The translations under genes were made by a program, and so were the position numbers. Below are positions 3,720 to 48,446 of a DNA stretch of 64,000 bases, in pieces. Below the pieces are notes generated by a model that was not told where the DNA came from, made no database searches, and saw nothing but the letters and a program-made list of their open reading frames with translations. Location of the stretch: assembly GCA_964630905.1 (NCBI GenBank), contig CAZVWR010000006.1:6232-70231 (forward strand), written 5' to 3'. The stretch is from an uncultured Spirochaetales bacterium (GTDB lineage Bacteria; UBP6; UBA1177). Position 1 is the first letter of the stretch; each line of letters opens with the position of its first letter.

Positions 3720-3807
3720 GGAGGAGTGGCCGAGTGGTCGATGGCGGCGGTCTTGAAAACCGTTGACGTGAGAGCGTCCGTGGGTTCGAATCCTACCTCC
3801 TCCGCCA
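3720..3807 (+). tRNA. tRNA-Ser (anticodon TGA)
   Basis: I folded the cloverleaf by hand: acceptor GGAGGAG/CTCCTCC, anticodon stem GCGGT/ACCGT, loop CTTGAAA, long variable arm, T-loop TTCGAAT, encoded CCA. Confidence 0.85.
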
Positions 3808-3824
3808 TTATTTTTTGTGTTTGC

Positions 3825-3916
<92 letters not shown>

Positions 3917-3929
3917 TTTTTTTTTGAGT

Positions 3930-4006
3930 GTGCCCATAGCTCAACTGGATAGAGCGTCTGGCTACGGACCAGGAGGCTGGGGGTTCGAATCCTCCTGGGC
4001 ACGCCA
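3930..4006 (+). tRNA. tRNA-Arg (anticodon ACG)
   Basis: Acceptor GTGCCCA/TGGGCAC, anticodon stem TCTGG/CCAGG, loop CTACGGA, 77 nt, encoded CCA. The A34 of this tRNA is the TadA substrate. Confidence 0.85.
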
Positions 4007-4018
4007 CGGTCTTTCAGG

Positions 4019-4516
4019 ATGGAAAGAGAAATCAGTTATATGAAACAGGCACTTGAACTTGCTCAGGAAGCAGGTCTGCAGGGAGAAGTTCCTGTAGGTG
4101 CTGTAGTGGTCTTTGAAAATAGAGTGATCGGAAAAGGATATAACAGGAGAGAATCGACCAATTCTCCATTGTCCCATGCAGAGATCGAGGCTATTCTTGA
4201 AGCTTCAGAAAACATCGGAAGCTGGAGACTTGAAGATTGTGAGCTTTATGTAACACTTGAGCCGTGCATCATGTGCAGCGGTGCAATTCTCCAGTCAAGG
4301 ATCAAAAGAGTTGTTTTCGGCCCCAGAGACCCGAAAGCTGGAGCTGTCAGATCTCTTTACAATCTCCTTGAGGATAAAAGGTTGAATCATAGAGTTGAAG
4401 TGGTAGAAGGAGTTTTGTCTGATGAATGTTCTTCAATACTTACCGGTTTTTTCAAAGATATAAGAAGCCGTCAGAAGAACGCAGTGTTAAAGACAGAGCA
4501 GAATAATGACTTTTAA
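4019..4516 (+). CDS. tadA: tRNA-specific adenosine deaminase
   Basis: The CDA-fold zinc motifs HAEIEAI and PCIMCSGAI, 165 aa. It lies immediately downstream of tRNA-Arg(ACG). Confidence 0.9.
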   Translation: MEREISYMKQALELAQEAGLQGEVPVGAVVVFENRVIGKGYNRRESTNSPLSHAEIEAILEASENIGSWRLEDCELYVTLEPCIMCSGAILQSRIKRVVFGPRDPKAGAVRSLYNLLEDKRLNHRVEVVEGVLSDECSSILTGFFKDIRSRQKNAVLKTEQNNDF

Positions 4517-4518
4517 GC

Positions 4519-4610
4519 GGAGAGATGTCCGAGTGGTTGAAGGAGCCTGACTCGAAATCAGGTGCGCTCTTTACGGGGTGCCTGGGGTTCGAATCCCTAT
4601 CTCTCCGCCA
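4519..4610 (+). tRNA. tRNA-Ser (anticodon CGA)
   Basis: Acceptor GGAGAGA/TCTCTCC, anticodon stem CCTGA/TCAGG, loop CTCGAAA, long variable arm, encoded CCA. It starts 3 nt after the tadA stop. Confidence 0.85.
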
Positions 4611-4634
4611 TATTTTCTTTTCGATCTTTTAAAC

Positions 4635-4725
<91 letters not shown>

Positions 4726-4831: not shown

Positions 4832-4943
4832 TTCATTTTTTAAGGTTATTTTCAGAAAAATGACACTCGAGTTCACTTTTTGCATTGACTAAATCAGTAA
4901 AATTGTTAGAATTCTGTTGATTGTGTGTTATTGGAGAGAAAAT

Positions 4944-7268
4944 ATGGTTAAATTTCTTAACATTCGAGTGGGATTCAGAGTTTTGACAGTCGCAGTTGTT
5001 TTTTTTGTTTCTGCATCTCTAAGCGGCGAATCTTTTGTTTCAATACAGGGTTATCCTCAGGAAAGATCTGAAGTTCCCGATTATCAGTTCCAGACACAGA
5101 CAACCATGGTGCTTAACCAGACGATAGACAGGATCCTTTATCCGGTTATCGGTTTTCCGGCAATGGTCACAGCGGCTGATCCCGAAATGTCCTTCATAAT
5201 CCGGTCTGAGAATATTCCTGAAATAGATAACATCAGGATAGTTCGCGAAATAGGTGGCAATGTTAAAGAATTTCAGGATCTTATCCCTTATTCCATTGAG
5301 CAGTGCGGATCTGGTCTTTATAAAGTCAAGATGATAGTTCCGGTAATTCTTCCAAGTGTAAGATATGACTTGAGCGTTAAACTTAAAGGCGAAGAATTTC
5401 CAATTATATCAAGGAATTCTGTGTTCTTTTCTGAATTTGATGCGTCCACGAAATTTTTTATCTGGGCCGATCCGCAGATAGAGGACCTGCAATCAAAAAT
5501 GGCTGGAGATCTCAATTACAATTCGGGGGAATATCCTTACAAAAGCGATTCGATCCTCGATTTTTCCAGGCAGGAGGGGATCATAAAAACCACCATATCG
5601 AACCTTAACATGGGTGACCGCCATTTTGTTACAATGCTTGGTGACATAGTTTTCGGGATTAATTATCAGAGAGAATATGAAGACATTCTTTCACTCATTG
5701 TCAATCTTGAAATTCCGTTTTTCCCGGTTCCGGGCAATCATGACGGGTATGCGAAGTTCACTGAACAGAACAACCTTTTCTCGCCGCTTGACTGGGATGG
5801 TTTGCAGTACTGGACGAAATTTGTGGGTCCGCTTCACTATGCGTTCAATTTTAACGGGCAGACATTTCTGATGCTTAATACTTATGACGGAACTCCGCAA
5901 AGAAGGGCGGCAGGCGATGCTCTCGGAATTGGTGATAATGCGGCGGTGCCGGTCAGCAACTGGGGCGGATTCCTTACCGACAGGTCTCTTAGCTGGATAG
6001 AGATAATGATGGATGACTATGATGTTTTCGGCCTTTTCAGCCACATGCTGCCTCTTGGACAGAATGCGACAGGTCTATATCATCCGATGAGAAAATTCCC
6101 GAAAGATTCTATAAAATATAAAGAAAATCAGGAATGGAATATTGAAACTTCAGAATGGGACAGCGACCTGACTGATCTTATATTCAACGAAACAGATAAG
6201 ATTAATACAGGTGTCAAGACCGCTGAATATATGACAAAGCAGTCTCCGTCCCCGATATATTTTTCAGGGCATACCCATCAGGATAGAATATATCTTTTTG
6301 AAAAAGGGGAAGAACTTGTTCCTGAAAGCGGAGTTTTTGCTGCTGATGACATGGAATTTATAATGACTACAACTGCCGCTACAAGTGGTCAACTATATTG
6401 GGGATTCAGGAAAGTTGATGTCGGTGTGACGGGGGATGTTTCCTATAATTATACCTGCGGCAGAGGTGTAAACTGTATGCCCAGCAGTGAAACGGAAAAA
6501 GGTTTTCAGTCAGTTCCGGCAGGGAATATGTGGGTGACATACACATGGAACTCTTTTGGAAATGATAATGAATCGATCTTCACGGGCGGAGACGGATTTT
6601 CAGACACGGTAAATGCAGAGGTTATGAATTATCTGCCGACAGAGGAGCCGGTGACTTTGAGATTTTTTATGCCGGCAGGTAAAAGTTATAAGATCGAAAA
6701 TCCTAAGTTCCATATATCAAATGCGGCTGTTTCAAAGGATATGACAACTCTTATCCTGACAGTGAAGGGAAGTGTTGCCGCCGGTTCGGAAATGGATAAA
6801 TTCCTTGCGAAGGATTTTTCAAGGAAAGTTGAATTTGTAACAGTTACCCCGTCCACTGCGACAGCTGTTGAGCCGCAGATCGAATATCCGCAGACAATTT
6901 TTGAAGATGAGCCGCTAAGTGCTGAAGTTAAGAACGGTGATGATTTCCTTTCACTTGTCTGGATAAGGAACAAGATCGAGTTTGCACAGGGCGAGACCTT
7001 TTCTGTAAAGTTTGATAACTATCAGGATGTTGAGACGATCTTCCTTATTTATATTGATAAAAGCGGGGTTCACGGCACAGCACTCTTTAAAACTGATATT
7101 CAGAAGCGTCCTGAAGAAGAACCCGATGAAGAAGTATCTGAAGAAATTGAAGAAACCGCTGATCCCGATGTGACAGAAATTAATGAAATTCAGGAAGATT
7201 CCGATGAAGATTCCAACACAGAAGAACCAAAAAAGAAAAAGTCCGGCTGTTCAGTCACTGTGATTTAG
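4944..7268 (+). CDS. secreted calcineurin-like metallophosphoesterase with an acidic C-terminal tail ending KKKKSGCSVTVI
   Basis: GNHD (FFPVPGNHDGY) and GHTHQD metallophosphatase motifs. N-terminal signal peptide (VVFFVSASLSG). RBS GGAGAG sits before the ATG at 4944; the ORF track begins earlier at a TTG. A D/E-rich tail is followed by a Cys-containing C-terminus. Confidence 0.7.
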   Translation: MVKFLNIRVGFRVLTVAVVFFVSASLSGESFVSIQGYPQERSEVPDYQFQTQTTMVLNQTIDRILYPVIGFPAMVTAADPEMSFIIRSENIPEIDNIRIVREIGGNVKEFQDLIPYSIEQCGSGLYKVKMIVPVILPSVRYDLSVKLKGEEFPIISRNSVFFSEFDASTKFFIWADPQIEDLQSKMAGDLNYNSGEYPYKSDSILDFSRQEGIIKTTISNLNMGDRHFVTMLGDIVFGINYQREYEDILSLIVNLEIPFFPVPGNHDGYAKFTEQNNLFSPLDWDGLQYWTKFVGPLHYAFNFNGQTFLMLNTYDGTPQRRAAGDALGIGDNAAVPVSNWGGFLTDRSLSWIEIMMDDYDVFGLFSHMLPLGQNATGLYHPMRKFPKDSIKYKENQEWNIETSEWDSDLTDLIFNETDKINTGVKTAEYMTKQSPSPIYFSGHTHQDRIYLFEKGEELVPESGVFAADDMEFIMTTTAATSGQLYWGFRKVDVGVTGDVSYNYTCGRGVNCMPSSETEKGFQSVPAGNMWVTYTWNSFGNDNESIFTGGDGFSDTVNAEVMNYLPTEEPVTLRFFMPAGKSYKIENPKFHISNAAVSKDMTTLILTVKGSVAAGSEMDKFLAKDFSRKVEFVTVTPSTATAVEPQIEYPQTIFEDEPLSAEVKNGDDFLSLVWIRNKIEFAQGETFSVKFDNYQDVETIFLIYIDKSGVHGTALFKTDIQKRPEEEPDEEVSEEIEETADPDVTEINEIQEDSDEDSNTEEPKKKKSGCSVTVI

Positions 7269-8188: not shown

Positions 8189-11100
8189 TTATTCAATAAC
8201 AGTCAGTTTTTGTGACTGGTCGTTATGTTTCTGTTCGGGGTTGTAGTATGGGTTGACTGATGATTCGCCGGTCGCCCCTTCCATCGGATAGTCTGCAAGA
8301 AGTTCAAAATTGAATGTAGCGGTCGCGCCGTTTGCGATGTGGTTGATGTAGAGTATCACCTGTCTTGGTGTGGTTTCATATTTCTGGAGATATGTTCCTG
8401 CTTCAACAGCGGTATCAAGCTGTGCCGGAATAAGTGTGAATCCCGGTGCGATACCGATGCTTGCAAGGACCATGCTCACTCCGGCGTCACTTACATTTTT
8501 AACTGTGACTGTGACTCCGACTGTATCGTTCACATTCAGAGAGGTCTTGTCATAGTTGACATCAATCGTGAGCGGACCTGTTGAAGTGTCATCTTCACCC
8601 GGAATGTACCATGTTGCGGTTGCCTGATACATCATGCTTCCTTCACCTGTGAAATTGATCTCGATATTGTTCTCACCGTAAACAAGGTGCTCTTTGAAAT
8701 CGATCAGACGGAGCACATCAGAGTTTTCAGGAGTGATGACTATTGTGGTTTCAGGTGAACCGTTAGCACTCACTTTTACAGTCGCGTCAGCTTCTGAAGT
8801 GCCGTTGTTGAGCGATTCGATCATGAATCTCAATGCAAGGATAGTTCCCTGAGTCGTTGACCAGTTGCCGAAAGAATCCTTCTGTCTTACAAGCCAGTTA
8901 AGTATCTGACCTGCAACATCTGAATATCCGCCTTTGTCAAGAAGGAGAAGTCCTATAAGAGCGGTCGTTTCAAGATTTGCTCCATCGCCACTGCTGTAAG
9001 TCTCTGTATTTACAGTCTGTTCCCAGTGTGCTCCACCTTCTTCATCTTCGATTTTCTTGTCGAGGATGTCGCTGATGAGCTTATTTATGACAGTTGCACT
9101 TCCACCATTTTTTACAAGTGCGATAGCGGTCATTGCCATTGAATATGTGTCTTCAGCTTTTGAAGCGTTGTTTTCAAGATATTTCACAGCGTTCTTTCTT
9201 GCAGTTTCCTCTTTGTCAGCCCTTGAAAGTGCCCATGCTCCATAAGCTGTTGTTCTTAAAAGTGAATTCTCAAAATTATTTATCGCCCCTTCAGCAATTC
9301 CGCCGCTAGTAGGAATAAATGACCCGTCAGAGTTCTGTTTTGAAGCCATCCATGCCGCAGTTCTTGTGATAATGGCAGGATCGACCTCGTGGACTGCGCT
9401 CATGTCAACAAATTCAAGAAGTCCGTAAGCAGTGAGAACAAAATGGGCAGGTTCAGCACCGAACCATTCAAATCCGCCGCCAGTGACTTCATAAGTGAGA
9501 AGCCGCTGATAACCCTGAGTTATGAAATCCCTTGCCTTAAGCTCGATCTCAGGGGTCAGGGTATCCGTTGCGATCATGTACTGAAGCACAAGAATGTTCG
9601 GATATGTAGCAGATGAAGTCTGTTCAAAACAGCCGTAAGGCATCTGGAACATCGAATCAAGCCCTTCAACAGCCTGAGACATGATGCCGGGATAGATTTT
9701 AACAAAAAGTTCAGCACTGTCAGCGATCGCATTTTCAGGAATTGTGATCGTAATGCTCTTGTTTCCGTTCAGCAGTGCACTTTCCGATTTGTCAGCCATT
9801 ATTCCGTCAGGTTTTACGGTGACACTTCTTTTCACAGCGTCTGACATTTTTGAACCGTGTGCGAATACTGTGAGAGAGTGTTTTCCTATTTTAAGAACTT
9901 TTATCGGGAAATATGCGGCTGAAACCGAATTTGCCGGAACTGTCACTTCAATCGCGGATGAGCCTGTCATTTCAAACCACTCCTCAGAATCGGCTTCAAG
10001 AGTAATTTTCTGAGATTCATTAAGGTAATTGTAAATTCCGACAGGAACAGCAACTTCATCGTTTTGCGTAAGGAAAACAGGGAAATCAATGTCAACGAAG
10101 AAATCCTGGAAAACTCTTATGCTGTCAAGAGAACTGCCAAGACCGCCGTTCAAGCTGTTGGCAAGAGATGTAACTCTCCATGTGGTAATTGAGTCAGCCA
10201 TCAGCACTTCAAGTTCAGCGACGCCCTTTTCATCAGTAATGAGCTGAGGATTGTAGTAAAGCGTTTCAGGGAACCATTCACGAACTTTAACTTTTGCATT
10301 CGGTTCACCGCCGGTATCCCCTGAATCACCGCTGTCTCCGTTATCTTCAGGATCCCCGCCCGTTGCCGCTTCATCGCTTACCTCACCGTTATCCATTTCG
10401 CCCCATTGTGCTTCACAGACCTTTATTTCCATTGTGATGTCGTCTTTTGTTCCTGCTGTTTCATCAGGTCCTGCCGAGATCAGAGTTGCAAGAGCTTTTT
10501 CGTAATCTGCGGTTCCGGGAGTTCCCGACATGATGTTGTCCCACGGGTCGGTGTTTTCAGGTTTTGCGAGTATTTTATCAAGTTCTTCCTCAGAGATCGC
10601 TCCGTTTGTGCAGTCAGAAGTTTCGCCGTTATCAAGAGCTTTAAAAATTGCATCAGCTTTTGCTTTTGCCGCCGCCGTAGAAGCTGAAAGATATGCGTTT
10701 TCAGATTGGGAGTAGTCATCCGCCGCAACGCCGTGGCTTAAATTGCCCGCATTTCCTGCAAAGAACGCATCGGCTTTCTTTTCAATCTCTTCTGCCTGTT
10801 CTTCATCTTCAACAGGGGTTACGATCTCTTCATAACTTGTGCCGTAGATCGCATAAGTCGATTCCATCACAGAACTTTCGATGTTGAAATATGTCTGTTC
10901 CATTCCCGGAATGAAATCCATCACATGGAAGACGGCTTCATCAACCATTGCAACTCCGAGTGCCGCAACGACCGGTTTACCTTCAGCATCTTTTATTTTG
11001 AACTGCGCTTTTGCCGTTTCTCTAGGCTTATATTCTTCTTTATCAGTAGAGAATTCGATATTGAGCGAACTTGATCTTCTTACATACACTCCCTTGGAGG

Positions 11101-13072
11101 AACGGATGATATTTCCTTCTTTTGTAAGGTAATAAGCAAGAATTTCAACAGGTCCGTGCATCGTTTCATCAAGAGTGATGTCTGTGCTCCCTTTTCCTTC
11201 CTTGAATTCGACAGTCTTCATCAGTCTTATCTGCCCGTCTGCTATCACATCGATATACGCTCTGTCGGGAAGCATTGACGGCTGCGGCATTTCAGGGTCG
11301 TATCCCGTAAAAATGTTGACGGTCATCGTATCTCCGGTGCCATAAATAGACGAATCTGTCGAAAGGAATACAAATTCGCTGTTGTCGTCTTTGGTGAAAA
11401 TAACATCGCTTTCAAATGTCTTGTCTTCGTATTTTACTGTAACTTTTACAGCTTCAGAATCTGTGAGAGCCATTTTAAACTCTGCAAAACCGCTTTCGCC
11501 GACAGTTATCTTTTCGGAATTTTCACCTGCTTTTACAGTGACTTCAGCCGCGAGCGGAGTTCCGTTCGGATCGGTGAGTATGAAGTACATATCCTGCTCA
11601 ATTCCGGGAAGCATTTTTCCTGCGGCCGGAACAAGTGTTGCGATCACAGGGGCTTTTACAACTTTTATTGTTTTAACTGTGGACTGTTCGTGGTCTGCGG
11701 TATCTGTGACCGTTATCTCAAATTTTACGGTTGCCTTTCCCTGATCAAGCTCGCTTCCTGTAAAATAGTCAGGAAGTTTTGCCTCAAAATTATATTTTCC
11801 ATCTTTAGTCAGAGTTGCATCAATTATTTTCACAGTATTTTCAGACACATCGAAAGTTTTTACTTCGATATGGACACTTCCTCCGCTCACCGGCTTTCCG
11901 TAGAAATAATTTGAAGTTATAGATCCTTTTACAGTTTCGCCGGGCATGTAAAAGCCTTTGTCGGCTTTGAAATCTATCCCGAACTTAGGAAGCACATATC
12001 TTTCGACAGTTATGGTCTTTTCAGAAGAAATATTCCCGTCAACTAAAGCAGAAATTGTGTAATTTCCGAGATTTACAAGATTTGCAAGTTTGAAGTCGGC
12101 GGCAAATATTCCGTATCCGCTGGTTTTTCCCTTTTCTTTATATACTTTATTGCCTTTCGGGTCGGTTATTTCAAGAGTTATGTCGCTGTCTGTGATCGGG
12201 TTCTTTGCAGGAAGTTCAAGTGAAAGTGTCCTGATGTGAATTGTCTGACCGGGCTGATAGAGAGGTTTGTCGGTTGTCAGAAGTATTTTGCTCAGTTGTT
12301 CCGCAACAACTTCAGTTTCAACGCTTCTTGTTCCGTATGCGGTTTCAGTTGTCACCACCATTTTAAGGGTGCCGAAAACCGATTCATCAACAGAAACAGG
12401 GACGGATGCCATTCCGGATTCATCAGTTTTTGCAGTGAATGTTCCGACAAGTTCCTCTCCGCTGAAAAGTTCGACATTGAGGTCTTTGTTCATGATAGGG
12501 TCGCCGCTCATTATCGGGTCGCCAGAAAGGACATCATTAACAAAAAGACGGAAAATTGATTCTTCACCCTTAATTATCTGAGCACTTCCAAGTATCTGGG
12601 TTTTTATTCTGGGTGATATCCGAAACATTGAAAGTTTGCCGTTGAGGTCGTAATCACTCCATTTTATTGAATATTTCATTAACAGGTTCGAAAGGTCCTC
12701 AAGCCCCGGAACATAATCTTTTCCGAGTTCGATTACTATTTCATTTGTAAGTGGAGTAATTGTCGATTTCACAGATCTTGTCAGATTTTCCACATTCGTT
12801 CCGTCAAGCTTGTCCACATTGACTGAAATATCGGCCATGATCGAAGGTGAGCTGCTTTCAAGCTGTGCAGGAATGTTAAGAAGGTATTTTTCCGATTCAT
12901 AGGAAATATAGATCTTAGCTTCATTTACTTCAAGAGGCCCTACTTTTATGACCCGGTCGCTTTCATCGTCAAAAGGATTTTTCTTTTTTCCTGTCTTAGA
13001 AGCCGAATTTTCACAGGAAAAAAGAAAAACAGCAAAAATCGTCATAATTACTGTCAAAAACTTAACTTTCAT
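8189..13072 (-). CDS. alpha-2-macroglobulin family lipoprotein with a thioester motif
   Basis: 1627 aa. Lipobox LFSC. The thioester-type motif is MPYGCFEQT (CxEQ). The large size and Ig-like repeat composition fit bacterial A2M. RBS GGGGAGAG lies upstream of the start. Confidence 0.8.
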   Translation of the reverse strand: MKVKFLTVIMTIFAVFLFSCENSASKTGKKKNPFDDESDRVIKVGPLEVNEAKIYISYESEKYLLNIPAQLESSSPSIMADISVNVDKLDGTNVENLTRSVKSTITPLTNEIVIELGKDYVPGLEDLSNLLMKYSIKWSDYDLNGKLSMFRISPRIKTQILGSAQIIKGEESIFRLFVNDVLSGDPIMSGDPIMNKDLNVELFSGEELVGTFTAKTDESGMASVPVSVDESVFGTLKMVVTTETAYGTRSVETEVVAEQLSKILLTTDKPLYQPGQTIHIRTLSLELPAKNPITDSDITLEITDPKGNKVYKEKGKTSGYGIFAADFKLANLVNLGNYTISALVDGNISSEKTITVERYVLPKFGIDFKADKGFYMPGETVKGSITSNYFYGKPVSGGSVHIEVKTFDVSENTVKIIDATLTKDGKYNFEAKLPDYFTGSELDQGKATVKFEITVTDTADHEQSTVKTIKVVKAPVIATLVPAAGKMLPGIEQDMYFILTDPNGTPLAAEVTVKAGENSEKITVGESGFAEFKMALTDSEAVKVTVKYEDKTFESDVIFTKDDNSEFVFLSTDSSIYGTGDTMTVNIFTGYDPEMPQPSMLPDRAYIDVIADGQIRLMKTVEFKEGKGSTDITLDETMHGPVEILAYYLTKEGNIIRSSKGVYVRRSSSLNIEFSTDKEEYKPRETAKAQFKIKDAEGKPVVAALGVAMVDEAVFHVMDFIPGMEQTYFNIESSVMESTYAIYGTSYEEIVTPVEDEEQAEEIEKKADAFFAGNAGNLSHGVAADDYSQSENAYLSASTAAAKAKADAIFKALDNGETSDCTNGAISEEELDKILAKPENTDPWDNIMSGTPGTADYEKALATLISAGPDETAGTKDDITMEIKVCEAQWGEMDNGEVSDEAATGGDPEDNGDSGDSGDTGGEPNAKVKVREWFPETLYYNPQLITDEKGVAELEVLMADSITTWRVTSLANSLNGGLGSSLDSIRVFQDFFVDIDFPVFLTQNDEVAVPVGIYNYLNESQKITLEADSEEWFEMTGSSAIEVTVPANSVSAAYFPIKVLKIGKHSLTVFAHGSKMSDAVKRSVTVKPDGIMADKSESALLNGNKSITITIPENAIADSAELFVKIYPGIMSQAVEGLDSMFQMPYGCFEQTSSATYPNILVLQYMIATDTLTPEIELKARDFITQGYQRLLTYEVTGGGFEWFGAEPAHFVLTAYGLLEFVDMSAVHEVDPAIITRTAAWMASKQNSDGSFIPTSGGIAEGAINNFENSLLRTTAYGAWALSRADKEETARKNAVKYLENNASKAEDTYSMAMTAIALVKNGGSATVINKLISDILDKKIEDEEGGAHWEQTVNTETYSSGDGANLETTALIGLLLLDKGGYSDVAGQILNWLVRQKDSFGNWSTTQGTILALRFMIESLNNGTSEADATVKVSANGSPETTIVITPENSDVLRLIDFKEHLVYGENNIEINFTGEGSMMYQATATWYIPGEDDTSTGPLTIDVNYDKTSLNVNDTVGVTVTVKNVSDAGVSMVLASIGIAPGFTLIPAQLDTAVEAGTYLQKYETTPRQVILYINHIANGATATFNFELLADYPMEGATGESSVNPYYNPEQKHNDQSQKLTVIE

Positions 13073-25539: not shown

Positions 25540-27093
25540 ATGATAAAACGGATTTTGTTAATGATTTCATTGGTTTCTTTGTTTTCTCCGATTTTTTCTG
25601 CAGAAAAAGACCGTCTTGCAGTTATGGATGTTGCTGATGAAGCGAAACTGTTTAACAAAACAACAATTGCCAATGTCACAGATTATATTTTCACAAAGTT
25701 GCAGGGAACAAAGATTTATTGGATGGTTCCGAAAGCTGATAGAGACACAGCGCTCGAGCAGGCGATTGAAGAAACCGTAAAAGGGTCAAGAAGAGAATGC
25801 GTTGATGAAAAGTGTCAGTTGTCACTCGTGGCTCAACTTCAGGCGAATTTCTTAATAAATACAAAGATCAAGAAACTTTACGAAGGAACTTGCAACATCA
25901 GCATCAGCAAATTCGATGTTGAAAAAAGAGCCGGAGTAGATTCGTGGGAAGAAAAATTCAACTGTACCGAAAAAGGACTTTATGAAACAATTGACGGGTT
26001 TGATTTTGGTGGAAATAAAGACAATAAAAGAGTTCTTAAGCAGGATAAGATGGCGGATGAAAATGCCTGTAAGTATGCGAAAGAGAAAAATAATTTAGAA
26101 ATATGGGAAAAATATATTGAAAAATACCCGAAAGGCGAATGTGAGTTTGAAGCAACGGTAAAAATAGAAGAACTGAACAAAAAGAAATCTGAAAAAGATG
26201 AAAACACAAAAACATCTTCAGGCAAAATCATTCCGCCCCCCAAAGAAAAGGAACTGAAAAAACCAGCTGATCTGAAGGTGAAAAATTTGTCCAACTGGTC
26301 AAAAAAAGCACCGAAAGAAATGACTTGGAATGATGCAAAAACATACTGTGCAAATTTAAATGAAGATGGATATTCAGATTGGAGATTGCCGACTATTTCA
26401 GAACTCAGAACACTTATCAAAAACTGTCCTGCTACTGAAACTGGCGGAGCTTGCAAAGTTACAAGTGATTGTTTGTCTTCGAAATATTGCATTAATAAAG
26501 CTTGTGGTGGCTGCTCAAATGCATCTGACGGCAGATATTCCAAACTTAGTGATACAAAAAAATGGTTCTGGTCGTCTTCGGCGCTATCAGATGATGCAGA
26601 ATACGCTTGGCTTGCGGGTTTCTACTATGGAGATGTGAGCAGCGGCAGCAAGGGCTACAAGGGCAATGTCCGTTGTGTGAGAACAAATCTAAAAACATCG
26701 GCTGGAACTTGGTCTAAAAATTTGACACATCGAATGGACTGGGTTGATGCAAAAGCATATTGCGATAACTTAAAAGAATCTGGTTATTCTGGTTGGAGAA
26801 TGCCTACAATATCAGAGCTTAGAACTCTGGTGAAAGAATGTTCAGCAACAGAAACAGGTGGATCGTGCGGTGTCAATGATTCGTGTTTATCTGAGAGCAA
26901 GTGTCGGAATAATAATTGTAACGGTTGCCCATCATCAGATGGAAAATACTCAATATTCAATGACATAGGACGGTTCTGGTCGTCTTCAGAAAGAAAAGAG
27001 GATAAAAGATTCGTGTGGTTTATAAATTTCTTTAACGGCAGTGTTTACAGTGACACTAAAACAGGTAGCGGATTTGTTCGCTGCGTCCGATAA
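25540..27093 (+). CDS. secreted protein with two Fibrobacter succinogenes major paralogous (FISUMP) domains
   Basis: Signal peptide. Two copies of GYSDWRLPTISELRTL...C...FWSSS...VRCVR, the hallmark of the FISUMP / TIGR02145-type domain. The central region is Lys/Glu-rich. Confidence 0.7.
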   Translation: MIKRILLMISLVSLFSPIFSAEKDRLAVMDVADEAKLFNKTTIANVTDYIFTKLQGTKIYWMVPKADRDTALEQAIEETVKGSRRECVDEKCQLSLVAQLQANFLINTKIKKLYEGTCNISISKFDVEKRAGVDSWEEKFNCTEKGLYETIDGFDFGGNKDNKRVLKQDKMADENACKYAKEKNNLEIWEKYIEKYPKGECEFEATVKIEELNKKKSEKDENTKTSSGKIIPPPKEKELKKPADLKVKNLSNWSKKAPKEMTWNDAKTYCANLNEDGYSDWRLPTISELRTLIKNCPATETGGACKVTSDCLSSKYCINKACGGCSNASDGRYSKLSDTKKWFWSSSALSDDAEYAWLAGFYYGDVSSGSKGYKGNVRCVRTNLKTSAGTWSKNLTHRMDWVDAKAYCDNLKESGYSGWRMPTISELRTLVKECSATETGGSCGVNDSCLSESKCRNNNCNGCPSSDGKYSIFNDIGRFWSSSERKEDKRFVWFINFFNGSVYSDTKTGSGFVRCVR

Positions 27094-33612: not shown

Positions 33613-34587
33613 TTATTTAAATATATGTCCGATCCTTTTTAAACGGAGGTCAATGACATCAAGAATGCTTTCGCCAAACTGAACTGAAAACCAGACAAAT
33701 AGCGGTTTTCCCTGAAGGTTTTCTCTCGGGACAAATCCCCAGTATCTGCTGTCAAGACTGTCATCACGGTTATCACCCATGACGAAATAATTTCTTTGCG
33801 GGACTGTGAACGATCTGTTGCAGTATTTGCAGTACTGCTCGATCTCTTCTCTTCTCTGCTCGTTTATCGCATCGTTATAGATCACTTTATACTGTCTGCC
33901 GTTCTCATTTGTTTCAATGAACTGCGTTGTTGTTGCTTTTTCGCCTCTTGATGAGGTGTAGGTCACTTTGCCTGAAAATTCCCTGATGAGCTTTTTCCCG
34001 TTCACATAGACATCTGTTCCGCTTAGAAGGATGGTGTCTCCGGGAATCCCGACAACTCTTTTAACGAGTGCTTTTTTCTGCGGTTCCGGCTCAGTGAAAG
34101 TGATTATTTCGCCCCTTTGCGGATCTGAAAACTCAACGAACTGATTTTCAGCGAAAGGAAGTGTAAGACCGTAAACGAACATTGCCACAAAAAGATTATC
34201 GCCTATTTCGATTGTATTTACCATACTTCCCGTCGGAACGCGGTATGAACCGATCACAAAGAATTTAAGTACAAGTGCAATGAGAACAACAAGCCACAGT
34301 TCATCAAAAAGCTCGGCGAGTGCGTTCTGTTTATATTTGTCAAAATGGAGCTTGAAGTTGTGATCTATGTCATAAAGCAGTTTCTGTGCATCTTCGAGCT
34401 TCGCATGTCCTGTCTGGTGTTTTCTTATAAGTTCTTCCGTTGATTCAAGATTTGAAACAATGCGCTTTTCGACAGTTTCAGGCAGAAGTTTCCGTTTCTT
34501 CTTTATCCAGCCCATCTGCCTTTGTCTATTCTGGATCTTTTTAATCAGCTTGTTGAGTTTCATTTTTGTAAACATCACCGCCTCCAA
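33613..34587 (-). CDS. lepB: signal peptidase I with an unusually long basic cytoplasmic N-terminal extension
   Basis: Catalytic Ser box GSMVNTI and box E YFVMGDNRDDSLDSRYWGFVP. A single TM segment (LWLVVLIALVLKFFVIG) is preceded by about 95 charged residues. Confidence 0.85.
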   Translation of the reverse strand: MEAVMFTKMKLNKLIKKIQNRQRQMGWIKKKRKLLPETVEKRIVSNLESTEELIRKHQTGHAKLEDAQKLLYDIDHNFKLHFDKYKQNALAELFDELWLVVLIALVLKFFVIGSYRVPTGSMVNTIEIGDNLFVAMFVYGLTLPFAENQFVEFSDPQRGEIITFTEPEPQKKALVKRVVGIPGDTILLSGTDVYVNGKKLIREFSGKVTYTSSRGEKATTTQFIETNENGRQYKVIYNDAINEQRREEIEQYCKYCNRSFTVPQRNYFVMGDNRDDSLDSRYWGFVPRENLQGKPLFVWFSVQFGESILDVIDLRLKRIGHIFK

Positions 34588-34641: not shown

Positions 34642-36471
34642 TCAGATCACTGAACAGCCACAGCCGACTTCTTCTTCGTCTTCCGGGATGTTTTCTTTGT
34701 CTGAAGAGGTATCACCGGTGTTTCCTGTGTCGGTGTCATCGTTAGCGCTGTTGCCTGTATCTCCGGTGTTGCCGGTGTCGTCTGGAACTTCAACTTCTCC
34801 TCCGCATGCCATACTTTCAGGTTTGTAGAGCATGTTCTTCACCTTTTTTTCATCCATCGGTTCACAGGTGTTGTCAAAAGTGACTCTCACGGGAAGGCCC
34901 TGATTGGTTTTATATGCCTGTCCTTCGCCTGTTTTTGCATCCCAGATGGAAGCTGAATTGGTAAACGAGGCATTTTTGGGTGCTTCATCAGAAGGTTTTA
35001 CAAGAAATCTCAAAAGTATTCTGTCACAATCTGCCTCATTTTGACAGATATTAAATGATTCTGAGATCTTAAGTCCTGCTTCAAGAGGAAATCCGCCATT
35101 GTCAGAAAAGTCCTTGAAGCATGTTCCGGTTCCGGTTTCATCTATCTGGAAGGTACCGGGGATATAAGACTGTATACCCGAAACAACATCTTTCACCATT
35201 ACCGATTCAGCCGGCTCGTGGCCGTGATTTTCGACAACTATCTGATATCCGAAAATGGTTTTGGGACATACTTTGTCACTCTGGGAGAGGGGAGTGAGGA
35301 TGAACTTTTCGTTTTTCTGCGGAATGTCAAAAGCTGGAAGTCGCGTATCAACAGACAGGATCACATAGTTTGTGAGGACAATATCAGCACCGGTCTTGAT
35401 GTAGAAATTCATGGAGTTCGTGCCGTATTGAAGGTGAGGGTTAAAGATGGAATCGGGAACTTCAGGATCGTACTGAAGAAAAAAAGTATCGACATCAAAT
35501 GAAAGCTCAGTCCTGCATTCGGATTGTTCACCTTTATAATTGATCGTTCTGAACTTGCTGTTAAAAGGCTGATTAAGAGGATTGCATGCCTGATCACCGA
35601 TCTCACCCAGAACAAGAGCAGAAGGAGCAAGACCTCCCTGAAGTTCAAGAGATTCAGGAGCTTTAAGGTAGTCATCTCCGTCACTTGTAACAAATGATAT
35701 TTTTACAGCTGCATTTTCAGGAAGTTCAAAATTTGAGATATTTATGGTGGTCGGATTACTTGTGGTATTTGAGCTCCAGTCCATGCCGCTGTACAGATAG
35801 ATCCGTTTTCTTGCGATCTGCGATGAACCGTAAATGAAAATAAGCTGCCAGCCGCCGATCATACTTGCACTGGAGCAGTATGCGTGATCGATTCCACTTA
35901 ACTGACAGTCGTAGATGTCGTCAACTCCTTTCACATTGTATTCGCCGGTCATGGGCTTTATTTCACCTGAATTGATGTCATACTGCATTTCCCTGATAAT
36001 GTCAGTCACGTCAACTCTGTAAACATAATAGTAGTATTTGGACATGAGTTCGGTTTTATAATATGATTCAAACTCAAAACCCTGCGTGGAAGCTGTATTT
36101 CCCTGCAAAGTCGCAGTAACGGTGTGTTCACTGCCGTCAGGAATTGTAAGCGTTACTGAATTGTCTGTAAGAGCCATTTTGTCTGAATCGTTGACAGAGG
36201 CAAACCAGACTAATATTGCTTTTTCGATTACAGCATCTGCAGGAACATCTGTATCAAGAAGAAAGTCAGAAGCACCCGTTATGCCGATTGAAGTGTCGCC
36301 TTGAGGTTCATACTGAGAATGGTCTGCAGTATCAAGAAGAAGTGATTTTGAAATGATGAAATAATCAAAAGCTCCTTCATATTCCATGATGGGCAAGTTG
36401 CTTATCGGCAGAGCTGAAACTGATAATAATAACAATGTGTTGAGAACAAGTGACTTCGTAAGATTTTTCAT
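34642..36471 (-). CDS. secreted protein of a paralogous family with a DUF11-like C-terminal region, an acidic linker and the C-terminal tag GCGCSVI
   Basis: Signal peptide. It is a paralog of 45943-47910; conserved blocks include AVIEKAILVWFAS, GFEFESYY and DVDTFFLQYD. The C-terminus reads DTGNTGDTSSDKENIPEDEEEVGCGCSVI-COOH. Confidence 0.6.
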   Translation of the reverse strand: MKNLTKSLVLNTLLLLSVSALPISNLPIMEYEGAFDYFIISKSLLLDTADHSQYEPQGDTSIGITGASDFLLDTDVPADAVIEKAILVWFASVNDSDKMALTDNSVTLTIPDGSEHTVTATLQGNTASTQGFEFESYYKTELMSKYYYYVYRVDVTDIIREMQYDINSGEIKPMTGEYNVKGVDDIYDCQLSGIDHAYCSSASMIGGWQLIFIYGSSQIARKRIYLYSGMDWSSNTTSNPTTINISNFELPENAAVKISFVTSDGDDYLKAPESLELQGGLAPSALVLGEIGDQACNPLNQPFNSKFRTINYKGEQSECRTELSFDVDTFFLQYDPEVPDSIFNPHLQYGTNSMNFYIKTGADIVLTNYVILSVDTRLPAFDIPQKNEKFILTPLSQSDKVCPKTIFGYQIVVENHGHEPAESVMVKDVVSGIQSYIPGTFQIDETGTGTCFKDFSDNGGFPLEAGLKISESFNICQNEADCDRILLRFLVKPSDEAPKNASFTNSASIWDAKTGEGQAYKTNQGLPVRVTFDNTCEPMDEKKVKNMLYKPESMACGGEVEVPDDTGNTGDTGNSANDDTDTGNTGDTSSDKENIPEDEEEVGCGCSVI

Positions 36472-45942: not shown

Positions 45943-47910
45943 ATGAAAATAAAAACAGTTTCTTTTTTGTTTGTTGTGTTTTTCTGCACGGCATTAAGCG
46001 GGGTAATACACGGAAATATGATCGGTGGTGATCCGTATGAAAGCTGGGAAGACGGCGGACAGGATTTTTTCGTAATGTTCAACTCAAATATTGATAACAA
46101 ACTGACTCTTTTCGGTGAAGATACTGACAATCCGCAGGGTGATACCTGTGTTGATGAAAGTTTGTTCACTCTTACCGATTTTCATATTCCCGAAGATGCG
46201 ATAATCGAAAAGGCATATCTCATCTGGATGGGGGCAGTGGATCCTGCAAAGTTTGATGATCCGACAGACAACAGTGTAAAGCTTAAGTTCATTCAGGAAT
46301 CTGAACTTGATCCTGTCATCCATGAAGAAACCGTGACAGCCGGAACAACAGGGAAACTTTTGACAGATACTGGAAGTTTCGAGTTTGAATCGCTTTATTT
46401 TCAGGATGATGTGAAAAATGGATGCAGTGAATCGGAAGCTGGTCAAATTATTAAGGGACAATATCTCGGATATTTCACATATCGAGTTGATATTACTGGT
46501 TTTTTTGACAGAATTTCTGAAATGAACGCGGAACTGGAAAGACCTGAAGACGGGAAGTATTACGGAACTTATGTTTTCAGTGATCTTGACTGTACTGAGC
46601 ACGATTATTACCGGTGCAGCAATAAAATGTTAAGTTCATGGGCGATTTTCATTGTTTACCGTTCACAGCATATCAGACCGCAAAGGGTATATTTCTACAA
46701 CGGTCTTGCTTTCATCCATGGTGACAAATCAGTTGCATCAATCAGCGGTTTTGAACTCCGGAGAAACCCGTCCATCCATCTTACAACGATGATCGCAGGT
46801 GGAGATATCAAACCTGTAGAATTAAATCTTCCGGAAGAAGGAATTTTACTTCAAGGTGAAGGTGCCACGAGCAGGTTCCGTCTTTACAACGAATGCAATC
46901 CTCTTATGGGAAGCTATGTCGAGGTTTTTAATTCCGTTTCATCGATCGCAAACTGGAGTCTTGATGCGACAGAAAACATTAAATGTGTTTCCAATTTCGG
47001 TATTGATGTAGATACATTTGTTCTTGATAGTGATGACATCAATCTTCAGGAGCATTTGAAAAAAGGTAACACTTCAATGGAAATTACTCTTTCAGTCAAT
47101 CAGGATGAGATATTCACTAATTTCATGGTTCTTTCAGCTAACCAGACAGCAGAAGGTCCAAATTTCGATATTCCGCCTGAAGCAAGCGACCCGTCAAAAT
47201 CTCAGTTCAATTTTCCATATGACCGCGAAAAACATTTCTGTGCATGTCCATCAAACGATGATGGAAAAGTTAAGGATTATTACTGCGAAACTGTCAACAG
47301 CAGAAGGGAGTTCTTTTATTTTATCAAAGTTCAGAACTGGGGTGAAGATGATGCGGAAGATGTTGTGGTGAGTGATGAGCTTGATAAAAGTCTTGAATAT
47401 ATTCAGGGATCTACTGAAATGGCGACACAGTATTCTCCTGAACTTGATGTCTATACGGACTGGAAATTAATTCCTGACAAACCTGATGGAGTTTTTCCTC
47501 TTTCCGGAACAGGTTATAAAGTTGCTTCAAAAATGCTTTCGTGCGATCAGAGCAACTGGACATGTCAGGATACAGTTTTTATCAGATATAAAGTTAAGCC
47601 GAAAGCAGGTATGCCCAAAAGTTATTATTTTTCAAATATTGCTCTTATTAAAGACAAAAACAGCGATGAAGCTTATAAAACCAACCTGTCATATCCGCTT
47701 AAACTTAATCCCACAACCTGTGAAATTGACACAACCTGTCCTGCTCCGACCAGAGAAATGTGCGGAGGAGCTCCTTATCCATGCGGACCTGAGGATATTC
47801 CTTGCGATGATTCAGACAATATTGAAAACAATGATAATGACAACATAATTGATGACGAAAACTCAGATAATGATACAAATTCAACAGGTTGCGGCTGTTC
47901 TTTTTTATAG
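45943..47910 (+). CDS. secreted protein, paralog of 34642-36471, with acidic linker and C-terminal tag GCGCSFL
   Basis: Signal peptide MKIKTVSFLFVVFFCTALSG. RBS GGAGGG precedes the ATG at 45943; the ORF track starts at 45931. Conserved blocks are shared with the paralog. The C-terminus reads DNDNIIDDENSDNDTNSTGCGCSFL-COOH. Confidence 0.6.
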   Translation: MKIKTVSFLFVVFFCTALSGVIHGNMIGGDPYESWEDGGQDFFVMFNSNIDNKLTLFGEDTDNPQGDTCVDESLFTLTDFHIPEDAIIEKAYLIWMGAVDPAKFDDPTDNSVKLKFIQESELDPVIHEETVTAGTTGKLLTDTGSFEFESLYFQDDVKNGCSESEAGQIIKGQYLGYFTYRVDITGFFDRISEMNAELERPEDGKYYGTYVFSDLDCTEHDYYRCSNKMLSSWAIFIVYRSQHIRPQRVYFYNGLAFIHGDKSVASISGFELRRNPSIHLTTMIAGGDIKPVELNLPEEGILLQGEGATSRFRLYNECNPLMGSYVEVFNSVSSIANWSLDATENIKCVSNFGIDVDTFVLDSDDINLQEHLKKGNTSMEITLSVNQDEIFTNFMVLSANQTAEGPNFDIPPEASDPSKSQFNFPYDREKHFCACPSNDDGKVKDYYCETVNSRREFFYFIKVQNWGEDDAEDVVVSDELDKSLEYIQGSTEMATQYSPELDVYTDWKLIPDKPDGVFPLSGTGYKVASKMLSCDQSNWTCQDTVFIRYKVKPKAGMPKSYYFSNIALIKDKNSDEAYKTNLSYPLKLNPTTCEIDTTCPAPTREMCGGAPYPCGPEDIPCDDSDNIENNDNDNIIDDENSDNDTNSTGCGCSFL

Positions 47911-48332: not shown

Positions 48333-48446
48333 TTCGACTCGCTAAAGCTTTGGTTGGCAAAATATTCAAATTTATTCCTTTGACATAATTTTTTCTTAAT
48401 AGTATTCTGTTTTGATTGTTCAGTGTGTGATAATAAGGAGAAAAAA

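Follow-up and report, generated by a model that had tools for sequence, protein, structure and literature searches.

All the prokaryotic C-terminal sorting signals described so far are tripartite and consist of a signature, a transmembrane helix, and a basic cluster. The helix of such signals presumably serves to present the substrate to an enzyme in the membrane. In eukaryotes, the much shorter CaaX and Rab motifs are processed by prenylation, Rce1 cleavage, and ICMT methylation. The described system closest to the one reported here is MYXO-CTERM (TIGR03901/TIGR03382), which is known together with its myxosortases MrtX, MrtC, and MrtP from the work of Haft (2023 preprint, 10.1101/2023.06.07.544157) and of Guo, Haft, and Wall (2025, PMC11980579). 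GCGC is its generic signature, and a disordered region precedes it; proteins with MYXO-CTERM, like those with GlyGly-CTERM, require the T2SS and are in part released, and Lgt is the leading candidate for the lipidation of MYXO-CTERM (PMC11980579). The other Cys-type signals, which include JDVT, are also all tripartite, and one protease superfamily handles both the long signals, such as MYXO-CTERM, and the short ones, such as CaaX (10.1101/2023.06.07.544157).

The case considered here comes from a 64-kb stretch of DNA from an uncultured bacterium of the candidate phylum UBP6 ("the window", meaning the whole stretch that was analysed). It contains a metallophosphoesterase gene with the following features:

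4885..4912, + strand: promoter-like site (TTGACT, 16 nt, TAGAAT, with TG), a consensus match only, 5' of the phosphoesterase gene
4944..7268, + strand: metallophosphoesterase gene, 774 aa from the ATG at 4944, predicted to be exported and ending in a C-terminal Cys tag
4944..5027, + strand: predicted signal peptide MVKFLNIRVGFRVLTVAVVFFVSASLSG, Sec type, without a lipobox (from the sequence, AlphaFold2 (AF2), and a heuristic class of type I, i.e., non-lipoprotein)
5031..7103, + strand: folded body (from the AF2 model, Pfam, and invariant catalytic motifs)
7104..7229, + strand: acidic, low-complexity, predicted disordered stalk (KRPEEEPDEE...NTEEP), KRPEEEPDEEVSEEIEETADPDVTEINEIQEDSDEDSNTEEP (from the sequence and AF2)
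7230..7241, + strand: KKKK basic patch directly before the tag, typical of the phosphoesterase family and not of the tag generally
7242..7265, + strand: tag SGCSVTVI-COOH, made of Gly-Cys, a small residue, and a mostly hydrophobic run of four up to the C-terminus

The open reading frame (4917/4944..7268, + strand) closes with a TAG stop at 7266-7268, and the promoter-like site fits the ATG at 4944 as the start codon. A preliminary description of this DNA had the reading frame right but the length slightly wrong (775 aa, as against 774 aa from this ATG), and the tail that it reported, an acidic stretch and then SGCSVTVI-COOH, is exactly what the sequence contains. A rule-based terminator scan 3' of the gene found no site. 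The identical protein (P0001) is also present on a 101-kb NCBI contig.

In the AF2 model (mean pLDDT 87, pTM 0.86), the N-terminus forms a helix over residues 7-25, followed by a low-confidence segment, and the body is divided into an N-terminal beta-sandwich (30-175), a metallophosphoesterase core (around 170-495), and two C-terminal beta-sandwich domains (around 525-720). Pfam Metallophos (PF00149) matches residues 234-296 with 22.9 bits against a gathering cut-off of 21.5. The GD, GNHD, and GHxH motifs are invariant in the orthologue alignment (G233-D234, G264-N265-H266-D267, H367, and H443/H445), and the first metal-binding motif is D-x-Q, not D-x-H. Both the score and the metal-binding motifs point to the PF00149 superfamily, an assignment that is weak but consistent; by sequence, the closest solved structure in the PDB is GpdQ (E 2e-5). 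Foldseek, run with the whole model against the PDB, returned only matches to Ig-like or PKD-like domains and nothing on the catalytic domain.

In the same model, the pLDDT falls below 50 from residue 732, and the sequence of the stalk is hypervariable across the orthologues, while the Gly-Cys that follows it is conserved; going by the model, the acidic stretch is a disordered stalk and no specific part of the signal. The tail is kept in 74 of the 75 full-length orthologues, which come from independent assemblies and are 39-100% identical, and the Cys of the tag is the sole invariant residue in the last 100 or so columns of their alignment. In a set of 49 orthologues, C769 is invariant and G768 is conserved in at least 90%. 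The tail is real and is under strong purifying selection.

Two further tagged genes lie in the window:

34642..36471, - strand: gene for a 609-aa exported protein with DUF11 repeats, CxC form of the tag; the open reading frame ends EDEEEVGCGCSVI
34645..34665, - strand: tag GCGCSVI-COOH, after an acidic stalk with TGNTGD repeats
45943..47910, + strand: gene for a paralogous, tagged exported protein with DUF11 repeats, 29% identical to the 609-aa protein
47887..47907, + strand: tag GCGCSFL-COOH, after an Asp/Asn-rich stalk

The reading frame of the second paralog (45931/45943..47910, + strand) ends NDTNSTGCGCSFL. In BLASTP, the two DUF11 paralogs match each other at 1e-48, and neither resembles the phosphoesterase (E 1.2 and 0.63), in agreement with the earlier claim that the latter is unrelated to this family. 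That the three proteins nevertheless share one tag is borne out insofar as orthologues bridge its forms, but the tails themselves are not identical (SGCSVTVI versus GCGCSxx). The short tag ends 110 of the 120 DUF11-family homologues listed.

The same ending recurs throughout the related UBP6 DNA. Its consensus is [G]-C-[S/A/T], three to five hydrophobic residues, and the C-terminus, or else G-C-G-C-[S/A], two or three hydrophobic residues, and the C-terminus. Among 429 open reading frames from the window and 31 related loci (approximately 1 Mb of DNA), 49 are tagged, as against 0.12 expected from the internal frequency of the motif. A first count gave at least seven non-homologous families with the tag, and this then became at least 12; they comprise hydrolases, proteases, and adhesin-like repeat proteins. 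Three copies are found in the 64-kb window, and five consecutive tagged genes are found in one related locus (L017). The 49 genes end in TAG (27), TAA (16), or TGA (6), and 3' of them no hidden hydrophobic-plus-basic segment was found in any frame; the use of three stops and the lack of a downstream continuation rule out stop-codon recoding or a frameshifted hidden helix.

In a logo of 224 distinct tails, 59 are of the CxC form, 200 have Gly at -1, and 201 end in I, L, or F. The last Cys is followed by 3-6 residues, mostly four or five and exactly three in only 8 of the 224, and these residues alternate in pattern (S-V-T-V-I, A-L-T-I-I). When metagenome DNA was scanned, irrespective of family, for the pattern GCGCS, two hydrophobic residues, F, and a stop, 71 matches were obtained, of which 41 end long reading frames with acidic stalks and 30 end short or non-acidic ones; a rough estimate of the matches due to chance is about 30, in line with the latter number. 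The single-Cys and GCGC forms are taken to be one tag because each family bears either form according to its clade. In 16 of the 17 loci with at least two tags, the subtype goes with the genome and not with the protein family, as expected of a signal read by one shared machinery. However, the genome of the window has both forms, which counts against the explanation by a shared anchor.

Nearly all the tagged proteins have N-terminal signal peptides, and those whose N-terminus is intact all do. According to the heuristic classification, 41 are SPI-like, 1 has a lipobox, and 7 are unclassifiable, as against 104 SPI-like and 51 lipobox proteins among those without the tag (Fisher p = 1.7e-5, a value to be read with the non-independence of orthologues in mind). 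This observation suggests that a protein has either the tag or a lipid anchor at its N-terminus. The tag itself resembles a lipobox in part, since small residues flank the Cys at -1 and +1 ([G/S/A]-C-[S/A/T], compared with [G/A/S]-C-[S/A/G]). It differs from the site of the Lgt/LspA/Lnt pathway in lying at the opposite end of the protein, in having D, G, S, or K at -3 instead of the Leu of L-[A/S/T]-[G/A/S]-C, and in having no adjacent membrane-embedded helix that would present the Cys to Lgt.

A connection with the tripartite signals is found in the homologues. In Myxococcota, Polyangia, and Planctomycetota, those of the phosphoesterase close with the full set of Cys motif, transmembrane helix, and Arg cluster. 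Of the Myxococcota tails, two score above the curated cut-offs for MYXO-CTERM (TIGR03901, 22.9 versus 20 bits; TIGR03382, 23.3 versus 15.85). Some distant homologues of the DUF11 proteins have GGC[AST][VI]x near their C-terminus and then, past a spacer, a transmembrane helix followed by a KK/RK cluster, and others stop straight after the signature (GCSITVID-COOH). No tripartite Cys signal was found among the 429 reading frames of the lineage; it therefore seems that such signals have given way to the short form. As judged from these sequences, the tag and the full tripartite Cys signals can stand in for one another in homologues, and the tag co-evolves within genomes.

The UBP6 tag shares with MYXO-CTERM its place at the extreme C-terminus of proteins with signal peptides, an invariant Cys (often within GCGC) followed by a small residue, the disordered linker before the signature, and its recurrence within a genome on many unrelated surface proteins; moreover, MYXO-CTERM sits at the position of the tag in the Myxococcota homologues of this very phosphoesterase. 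It differs in that the protein ends 3-6 residues past the Cys, with neither a transmembrane helix nor an Arg-rich cluster, in that it does not reach the HMM cut-offs, and in that it belongs to UBP6, not Myxococcota. Whether the full proteins or the isolated tails were scanned, neither NCBIfam nor Pfam gave a match to a sorting-signal model at E up to 10; the Myxococcota tails, which pass, served as the positive control for the MYXO-CTERM HMMs. In the literature, a search for short bacterial Cys signals at the C-terminus without a transmembrane helix found only tripartite systems. The tag thus appears to be the signature motif alone, without helix or Arg cluster, a form for which we found no curated model or paper. 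GlyGly-CTERM/rhombosortase, PEP-CTERM/exosortase, and LPXTG/sortase offer a looser parallel, in which one catalytic or adhesive body carries C-terminal anchors that vary with the lineage, and LPXTG has a hydrophilic spacer between signature and helix like that of the tripartite DUF11 relatives. However, their signatures are Gly-Gly, PEP, or LPXTG instead of Cys, and all have the membrane segment that the short UBP6 tag lacks.

We consider that the tail at 7242-7265 is, on balance, probably one copy of a UBP6-wide minimal C-terminal sorting and anchoring signal, that is, a Cys signature of the MYXO-CTERM kind minus its helix and basic cluster. By analogy with the described systems, the tag is likely to function in the modification of its Cys and in surface tethering. 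The enzyme would first be exported by the Sec route via its N-terminal signal peptide; the unpaired Cys at the end of the stalk would then be covalently modified, most likely with a lipid if the MYXO-CTERM model and eukaryotic CaaX processing are a guide; the 3-5 hydrophobic residues after the Cys would serve as a recognition element and would probably be clipped off; and the C-terminus would finally tether the enzyme to the envelope or surface of the cell, the stalk serving as spacer. Here, we infer the anchoring, the Cys modification, the cleavage, and the identity of the enzyme. The earlier proposal of a transferable sorting or anchor module agrees well with what the sequences suggest, given the occurrence of the tag on at least 12 non-homologous families, the signal peptides, the retention of the Gly-Cys, and the tripartite signals of the homologues. 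Against the anchor, current models need both the helix and the Arg cluster to hold the substrate at an intramembrane protease, and without them a soluble periplasmic protein with 3-5 hydrophobic residues would have to reach a membrane enzyme. The failure of curated HMMs to recognize the tail and the lack of a CPBP/Rce1-like or other recurrent enzyme gene beside the tagged genes, over approximately 1 Mb of lineage DNA, also count against it.

Another explanation is that the tag is a covalent cross-linking device without any lipid. The Cys or CxC would form a disulfide or thioether with a partner protein, the S-layer, or an envelope polymer, and the hydrophobic residues would dock into the partner. 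An unpaired, invariant Cys on the tip of a flexible stalk would be well placed for this, the alternating residues that follow it would lend themselves to joining a partner as an added strand, and no gene for lipid transfer or proteolysis was found in the window and loci. However, the homologues have membrane-spanning signals of the MYXO-CTERM type, for which lipidation and cleavage are the accepted model, no conserved partner gene adjoins the tagged genes, and the near absence of the lipobox from tagged proteins fits redundancy between membrane anchors better. We regard cross-linking as rather improbable.

The tag could also be a signal for outer-membrane translocation only, recognized in the periplasm by a T2SS-like or other secretion machine, with release into the medium and no covalent anchor. 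The tagged hydrolases, proteases, and adhesin-like repeat proteins are typical of secretomes, and both T2SS dependence and partial release are described for proteins with MYXO-CTERM or GlyGly-CTERM (PMC11980579). Yet the T2SS is thought to read folded domains and not linear C-terminal peptides, this explanation leaves the invariant Gly-Cys unaccounted for, and a long stalk before the tail suits a tethered protein rather than a released one, all of which makes it an unlikely one. Less plausible still, and to our mind very doubtful, is that the tag acts as a degron or PDZ ligand whose hydrophobic end is bound in the periplasm, by a tail-specific or HtrA-type protease, for turnover or envelope stress signalling. 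The predominance of I, L, or F as the last residue would suit this, and the PDZ-ligand patterns [S/T]-x-hydrophobic and hydrophobic-x-hydrophobic describe several of the tails. However, PDZ ligands can do without an invariant Gly-Cys placed five residues before the end, nothing explains why a dozen unrelated secreted enzymes should have a constitutive degron after a stalk of 40 residues, and the equivalence with the tripartite sorting signals of homologues would not be accounted for. Finally, a tail that is due to a frameshifted or misassembled 3' end or to a low-complexity coincidence has a negligible probability, given that the same tail, with its invariant Cys, ends approximately 75 phosphoesterase and 110 DUF11 orthologues from independent assemblies, that the observed number of tags so exceeds the expected one, and that no hidden continuation exists, and a frameshift or assembly artefact at the 3' end of the phosphoesterase gene, which the preliminary description had named as the refutation of its claim, is excluded by the 74 of 75 orthologues, the three stops, and the lack of a downstream frame.

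Should the tail work as an anchor signal, the helix-based retention of the substrate would be dispensable, and the gap would narrow between the Cys-type signals of bacteria and the CaaX boxes of eukaryotes. Across the whole UBP6 lineage, the Cys signature occurs alone on these 12 or more unrelated secreted families, and the full-length form occurs at the same position elsewhere. A peptide substrate of only eight residues would ease the study of the Cys-modifying step, for which even MYXO-CTERM has only candidate enzymes. The motif would also be a simple means to flag the surface proteins of an uncultured phylum of the rumen and of digesters, and a new annotation model could be built on it.

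The eukaryotic motifs (CaaX, Rab CXC/CC) resemble the tag in having a Cys a few residues from the C-terminus, aliphatic residues after it, no transmembrane segment, and CxC variants, and the polybasic patch before the Cys of K-Ras4B has its like in the phosphoesterase family. The CaaX spacing, with the Cys fourth from the end, fits the DUF11 paralogs (CSVI, CSFL) but not the tags overall, since five residues follow the Cys in the phosphoesterase and three do so in only the 8 tails counted above. Moreover, CaaX proteins are cytosolic, whereas the UBP6-tagged proteins are Sec-exported and in this respect are unlike the substrates of a soluble prenyltransferase. We know of no protein prenyltransferase of the FTase/GGTase type here, and none was found in the analysed UBP6 DNA. 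In three clades, a gene for a lineage-restricted UbiA prenyltransferase comes directly 3' of tagged genes; the window lacks it, and in three other loci (L086, L087, and L163) it is unlinked to tagged genes. The Asp-rich motifs of this UbiA should presumably face the cytoplasm, by analogy with the solved UbiA enzymes. As a candidate for the processing enzyme, this gene is a lead, not a conclusion. It allows for a bolder scheme, to which we give little credence, in which the exported proteins of UBP6 would undergo a true prokaryotic equivalent of CaaX processing: the helix-less Cys box would be lipidated, possibly prenylated via the UbiA-family enzyme of the lineage, the tail would be trimmed, and surface enzymes would be C-terminally lipid-anchored without a membrane-spanning intermediate. 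Were this true, the tag would be the first bacterial C-terminal sorting signal that is not tripartite and an evolutionary bridge between signals of the MYXO-CTERM type and the CaaX/Rab CXC motifs of eukaryotes.

JDVT and the other Cys-type signals share with the tag an invariant Cys in a short C-terminal signature, and their processing is predicted to depend on an Rce1-like glutamic intramembrane protease. JDVT usually has a single substrate linked to the gene of its enzyme, whereas the UBP6 tag has many substrates and no linked CPBP gene. A regular expression for the CPBP motifs (EExxxR...FxxxH...HxxxN), applied to all the reading frames of the window and loci (approximately 1 Mb), found no CPBP/Rce1-like gene. 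In the same DNA, clustering of the recurrent neighbours of tagged genes revealed neither a recurrent enzyme nor a conserved partner gene. The lack of a CPBP neighbour is a weak negative because myxosortases too are unlinked to their substrates. Look-ups of the genes at the ends of the window's contig led to short Logan contigs with nothing relevant. Two neighbours were set aside as candidates, namely a signal peptidase I gene that adjoins the tagged gene at 34642, which is not conserved as a neighbour in L083, L084, and L085, and a DUF6498 membrane protein (49018-49866) near a tagged gene, which is without CPBP motifs. The proteins with at least four predicted helices, all of which were listed, are ordinary transporters and the like, with no CPBP-like enzyme among them. 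Two of these helix-rich proteins are Lgt-like, as judged by sequence motif alone.

ATG 4944 is the most likely start of the gene for the secreted metallophosphoesterase, given a promoter-like site at 4885-4912, and the translation of this gene (7104-7265) exactly reproduces the C-terminus reported in the preliminary description, an acidic stretch followed by SGCSVTVI-COOH. The features of this gene, and of two other genes with a similar end, are as follows.

4885-4912, upstream of the phosphoesterase: promoter-like site TTGACT-16-TAGAAT
4917-7268, forward strand: phosphoesterase ORF, 774 aa when counted from ATG 4944
7104-7229, forward strand: acidic stretch of the phosphoesterase tail
7230-7241, forward strand: KKKK of the tail
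7242-7265, forward strand: SGCSVTVI of the tail, with the TAG stop next
34642-36471, reverse strand: DUF11-repeat ORF ending in an acidic stretch and GCGCSVI
45931/45943-47910, forward strand: DUF11-repeat ORF ending in an acidic stretch and GCGCSFL

The Pfam-based phosphoesterase assignment is weak (Metallophos, 22.9 bits for a cut-off of 21.5) and is backed by the GD, GNHD, and GHxH motifs, invariant in 49 aligned orthologues, and by distant similarity to the glycerophosphodiesterase GpdQ (E 2e-5). In the AlphaFold2 model (pLDDT 87), a signal-peptide helix is followed by an N-terminal beta-sandwich, the phosphoesterase core, and two C-terminal beta-sandwich domains; the tail is disordered from around residue 721, with a pLDDT <50 from residue 732.

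A frameshift or an assembly artefact, which the preliminary description had named as the danger to its reading, could have produced such a tail. A protein search found 90 relatives, 75 of them full-length (39-100% identity, all from uncultured-bacterium assemblies), and the same kind of tail ends 74 of these 75, reading KKKSGCS[VAIT]xx[ILF] in close orthologues and GCGCS[VL][VL]F or GCSCSxxF at ~40% identity. The stalk is hypervariable in the alignment, in which the tail cysteine, C769, is the sole invariant residue across the last ~100 columns and the Gly preceding it is at least 90% conserved. Moreover, genes with this short tail (the tag) use all three kinds of stop codon, and no hidden hydrophobic-plus-basic segment is encoded downstream of them in any frame. 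These results rule out an artefact.

In agreement with the earlier claim, BLASTP detects no similarity between the phosphoesterase and either DUF11-repeat protein (E 1.2 and 0.63), which are mutually paralogous (E 1e-48). The proposal that all three share one terminal architecture holds for the acidic stretch and the Cys tail but not for the exact ending, SGCSVTVI versus GCGCSVI or GCGCSFL. The short tag is present in 110 of the 120 DUF11 homologues listed (e.g., SGCALTII, AGCALIFI, VGCGCSVI, and GCGCSLLF). Across the window and 31 lineage loci, it ends 49 of the 429 ORFs that are 100 aa or longer, where 0.12 are expected from the motif's internal frequency, which rules out chance. These 49 fall into seven unrelated BLAST families, even with the last 60 residues removed before comparison, and one locus (L017) has a run of five consecutive tagged genes. 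When metagenome contigs were scanned for a DNA pattern (GCGCS, two hydrophobic residues, F, and stop) irrespective of protein family, 71 matches were obtained. Of these, 41 terminate long ORFs whose stalks are acidic (consensus ...PDxDxxKKKDDGCGCSLVF), and the remaining 30 are on short or non-acidic ORFs, in agreement with a rough chance estimate of ~30. Clustering of all sets gives at least 12 tagged families, and S8 peptidases and one M14 peptidase were also encountered with the tag.

The logo of 224 distinct tails reads G (200/224), C, [S128/A71/T20], [L/V/A/I], [I/T/L/V], [I/F/V/L], [I/L/F], and then the C-terminus, with three (8 tails), four (42), five (166), six (7), or seven (1) residues after the last Cys; 59 of the 224 have the CxC form. 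The change between single-Cys and CxC forms follows the clade in both the phosphoesterase and DUF11 families, and in 16 of the 17 loci with at least two tags, unrelated proteins have the same subtype, the window alone being mixed. The tail thus evolves in concert with the genome, an argument for a single recognition machinery common to all tags, and SGCSVTVI and GCGCSVI are shown to be alternative versions of the same signal. A different C-terminal Cys motif, ...[FV]VRC[VI]R, also recurs, at the ends of lipoproteins (window 25540-27093; also L002, L004, L019, L022, L030, and L085); it belongs to the Lcl_C (DUF1566) fold rather than to the tag and is a useful negative control in C-terminal cysteine scans.

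The nature of the signal is suggested by distant homologues. Those of the phosphoesterase (24-29% identity), in Myxococcota, Polyangia, and Planctomycetota MAGs, have at the same position a Cys motif (GCGGC, GCAGCC, or GCASC), a hydrophobic helix, and RRRR; two of these tails pass the curated MYXO-CTERM cut-offs (TIGR03901, 22.9 versus 20; TIGR03382, 23.3 versus 15.85) and a third scores just under. Distant DUF11 relatives of ~1000 aa end in GGC[A/S/T][V/I][T/S]x[I/V/L], which a short hydrophilic spacer separates from a helix and a KK/RK cluster, and their sisters P0200-P0203 (locus L081) terminate right after the signature (GCSITVID or GCSLTVIN). The short tag therefore corresponds to the signature motif minus the helix and the basic cluster, and we infer that, of a Cys-type C-terminal sorting signal, it retains the signature alone. 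None of the 429 lineage ORFs showed a tripartite Cys signal. The spacer-type tails (GGC[AST][VI]x, spacer, helix, KK/RK; L080:10001-13111 of GCA_002309575.1, P0199, and P0204-P0209) attain the cut-off of no NCBIfam sorting model and may be an uncurated Cys-type signal of their own kind.

The four known Cys-type signals are all tripartite; the generic MYXO-CTERM signature is GCGC, preceded by a disordered region, and in the working model an unidentified, perhaps Lgt-like, enzyme lipidates the Cys before a Rce1-like myxosortase cuts distal to it, with T2SS-dependent surface display (10.1101/2023.06.07.544157; PMC11980579). The tag lacks the helix and the Arg cluster that define MYXO-CTERM proper and is not matched by its HMM, and it differs from a strict CaaX box in spacing and compartment. 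No NCBIfam model (June 2026) matches it, and a transmembrane-less bacterial version is described neither in these two papers nor in the literature searched. One protease superfamily serves both long (MYXO-CTERM) and short (CaaX) signals (10.1101/2023.06.07.544157).

An orthologue-alignment scan of a genome collection found the close relatives of the phosphoesterase in MAGs named 'bacterium UBP6_UBA1177/UBA1196' and in others, from rumen and digesters, that are unclassified and in part carry the label Spirochaetales or Sumerlaeota; the window therefore derives from the candidate phylum UBP6 or from a near relation of it. A diderm envelope is suggested by an RND efflux pump with an outer-membrane factor gene (OEP, TolC-type) beside it in L083 and by a faint match to a TonB-dependent-receptor barrel in L162. 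According to a simple heuristic for signal peptides, 41 tagged proteins are type I signal peptide (SPI)-like, 1 has a lipobox, and 7 are unclassifiable (contig-end cuts or over-extended starts), against 104 SPI-like and 51 lipobox proteins among untagged ORFs (Fisher p = 1.7e-5, orthologues not being independent). An exported protein would thus seem to have either the tag or an N-terminal lipid anchor. The earlier idea of a transferable sorting or anchor module is supported, at the sequence level, by the at least 12 unrelated families, their mostly SPI-like exports, and the exchange with tripartite signals.

The best-supported scheme is that the tagged protein would be exported by Sec, that its unpaired terminal Cys would be covalently modified, most likely by a lipid, that the 3-5 hydrophobic residues would serve as recognition element and probably be removed, and that the enzyme would be tethered to the envelope via its 40-residue acidic stalk. 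In polybasic CaaX proteins, a basic patch near the Cys favours anionic membranes; by analogy, KKKK beside the Cys in the phosphoesterase family would do the same. The weak point is that a soluble periplasmic protein must meet a membrane enzyme without a helix. Other, less probable readings are that the tag serves for cross-linking, for export alone, or as a degron or PDZ ligand. Each accounts less well for the invariant Gly-Cys and the scarcity of lipoboxes and, most of all, for the tripartite signals that homologues have in its place.

In ~1 Mb of lineage DNA, the surroundings of tagged genes contain neither a CPBP/Rce1-like gene nor any other enzyme that recurs, a weak negative because myxosortase genes are not linked to their substrate genes either (10.1101/2023.06.07.544157). 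A lead comes from L085 (10001-14464), where two tagged genes, for a DUF11 protein and an S8 peptidase, precede a UbiA-family prenyltransferase gene that begins three bases past the preceding S8 stop codon. Tagged S8 and UbiA recur in L088 (8054-10810; UbiA 70% identical to that of L085), and the full DUF11-S8-UbiA run in L162 (6289-10816; UbiA 48% identical, GC content different), so that the S8/UbiA linkage spans three clades (UbiA 48-100% identical). The subfamily is small, narrow, and lineage-restricted (7 representatives at E up to 1e-30 among 1.84 billion; ~80 clusters, 42-99% identity) and scores under every curated UbiA subfamily cut-off. One hypothesis is that this protein supplies or transfers a lipid for the tag. 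Against it count three other members not linked to tagged genes, the absence of any member from the 64-kb window, and the fact that UbiA active sites normally face the cytoplasm.

Several neighbouring genes were also noted. The tagged DUF11 gene at 34642-36471 has as its immediate downstream neighbour, on the same strand, a gene for signal peptidase I (33613-34587, reverse strand; TIGR02227, E 6.6e-42), an adjacency not conserved in L083, L084, and L085. About 0.5 kb downstream of the other tagged DUF11 gene, 48423-49013 encodes a bacterial ERG2/sigma-1-receptor-like protein (PF04622, E 1.8e-58), whose family is known mainly from eukaryotic sterol isomerases, and the gene right after it (49018-49866) encodes a multi-pass membrane protein of the DUF6498 type. 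At 37791-42440 (reverse strand), a 1549-aa thrombospondin-type-3-repeat protein matches NF047638, the model for the Myxococcus 'cell-cell cohesion MYXO-CTERM protein MtsC' (E 3.7e-158); its N-terminus carries a lipobox (FFASC) and its C-terminus lacks the tag, i.e., an anchor swap in the opposite direction. A nitrilase-like gene follows the phosphoesterase, and directly downstream of it is a gene (8189-13072, reverse strand) for a lipoprotein of 1627 aa that has the thioester motif GCFEQ and is probably alpha-2-macroglobulin-like. Finally, five tRNA genes (four tRNA-Ser and tRNA-Arg-ACG; 3720-4725), which several listed and probably spurious ORFs overlap, flank a gene (4019-4516) for a putative TadA-type tRNA adenosine deaminase; if the assignment holds, the enzyme adjoins its own substrate, tRNA-Arg(ACG).
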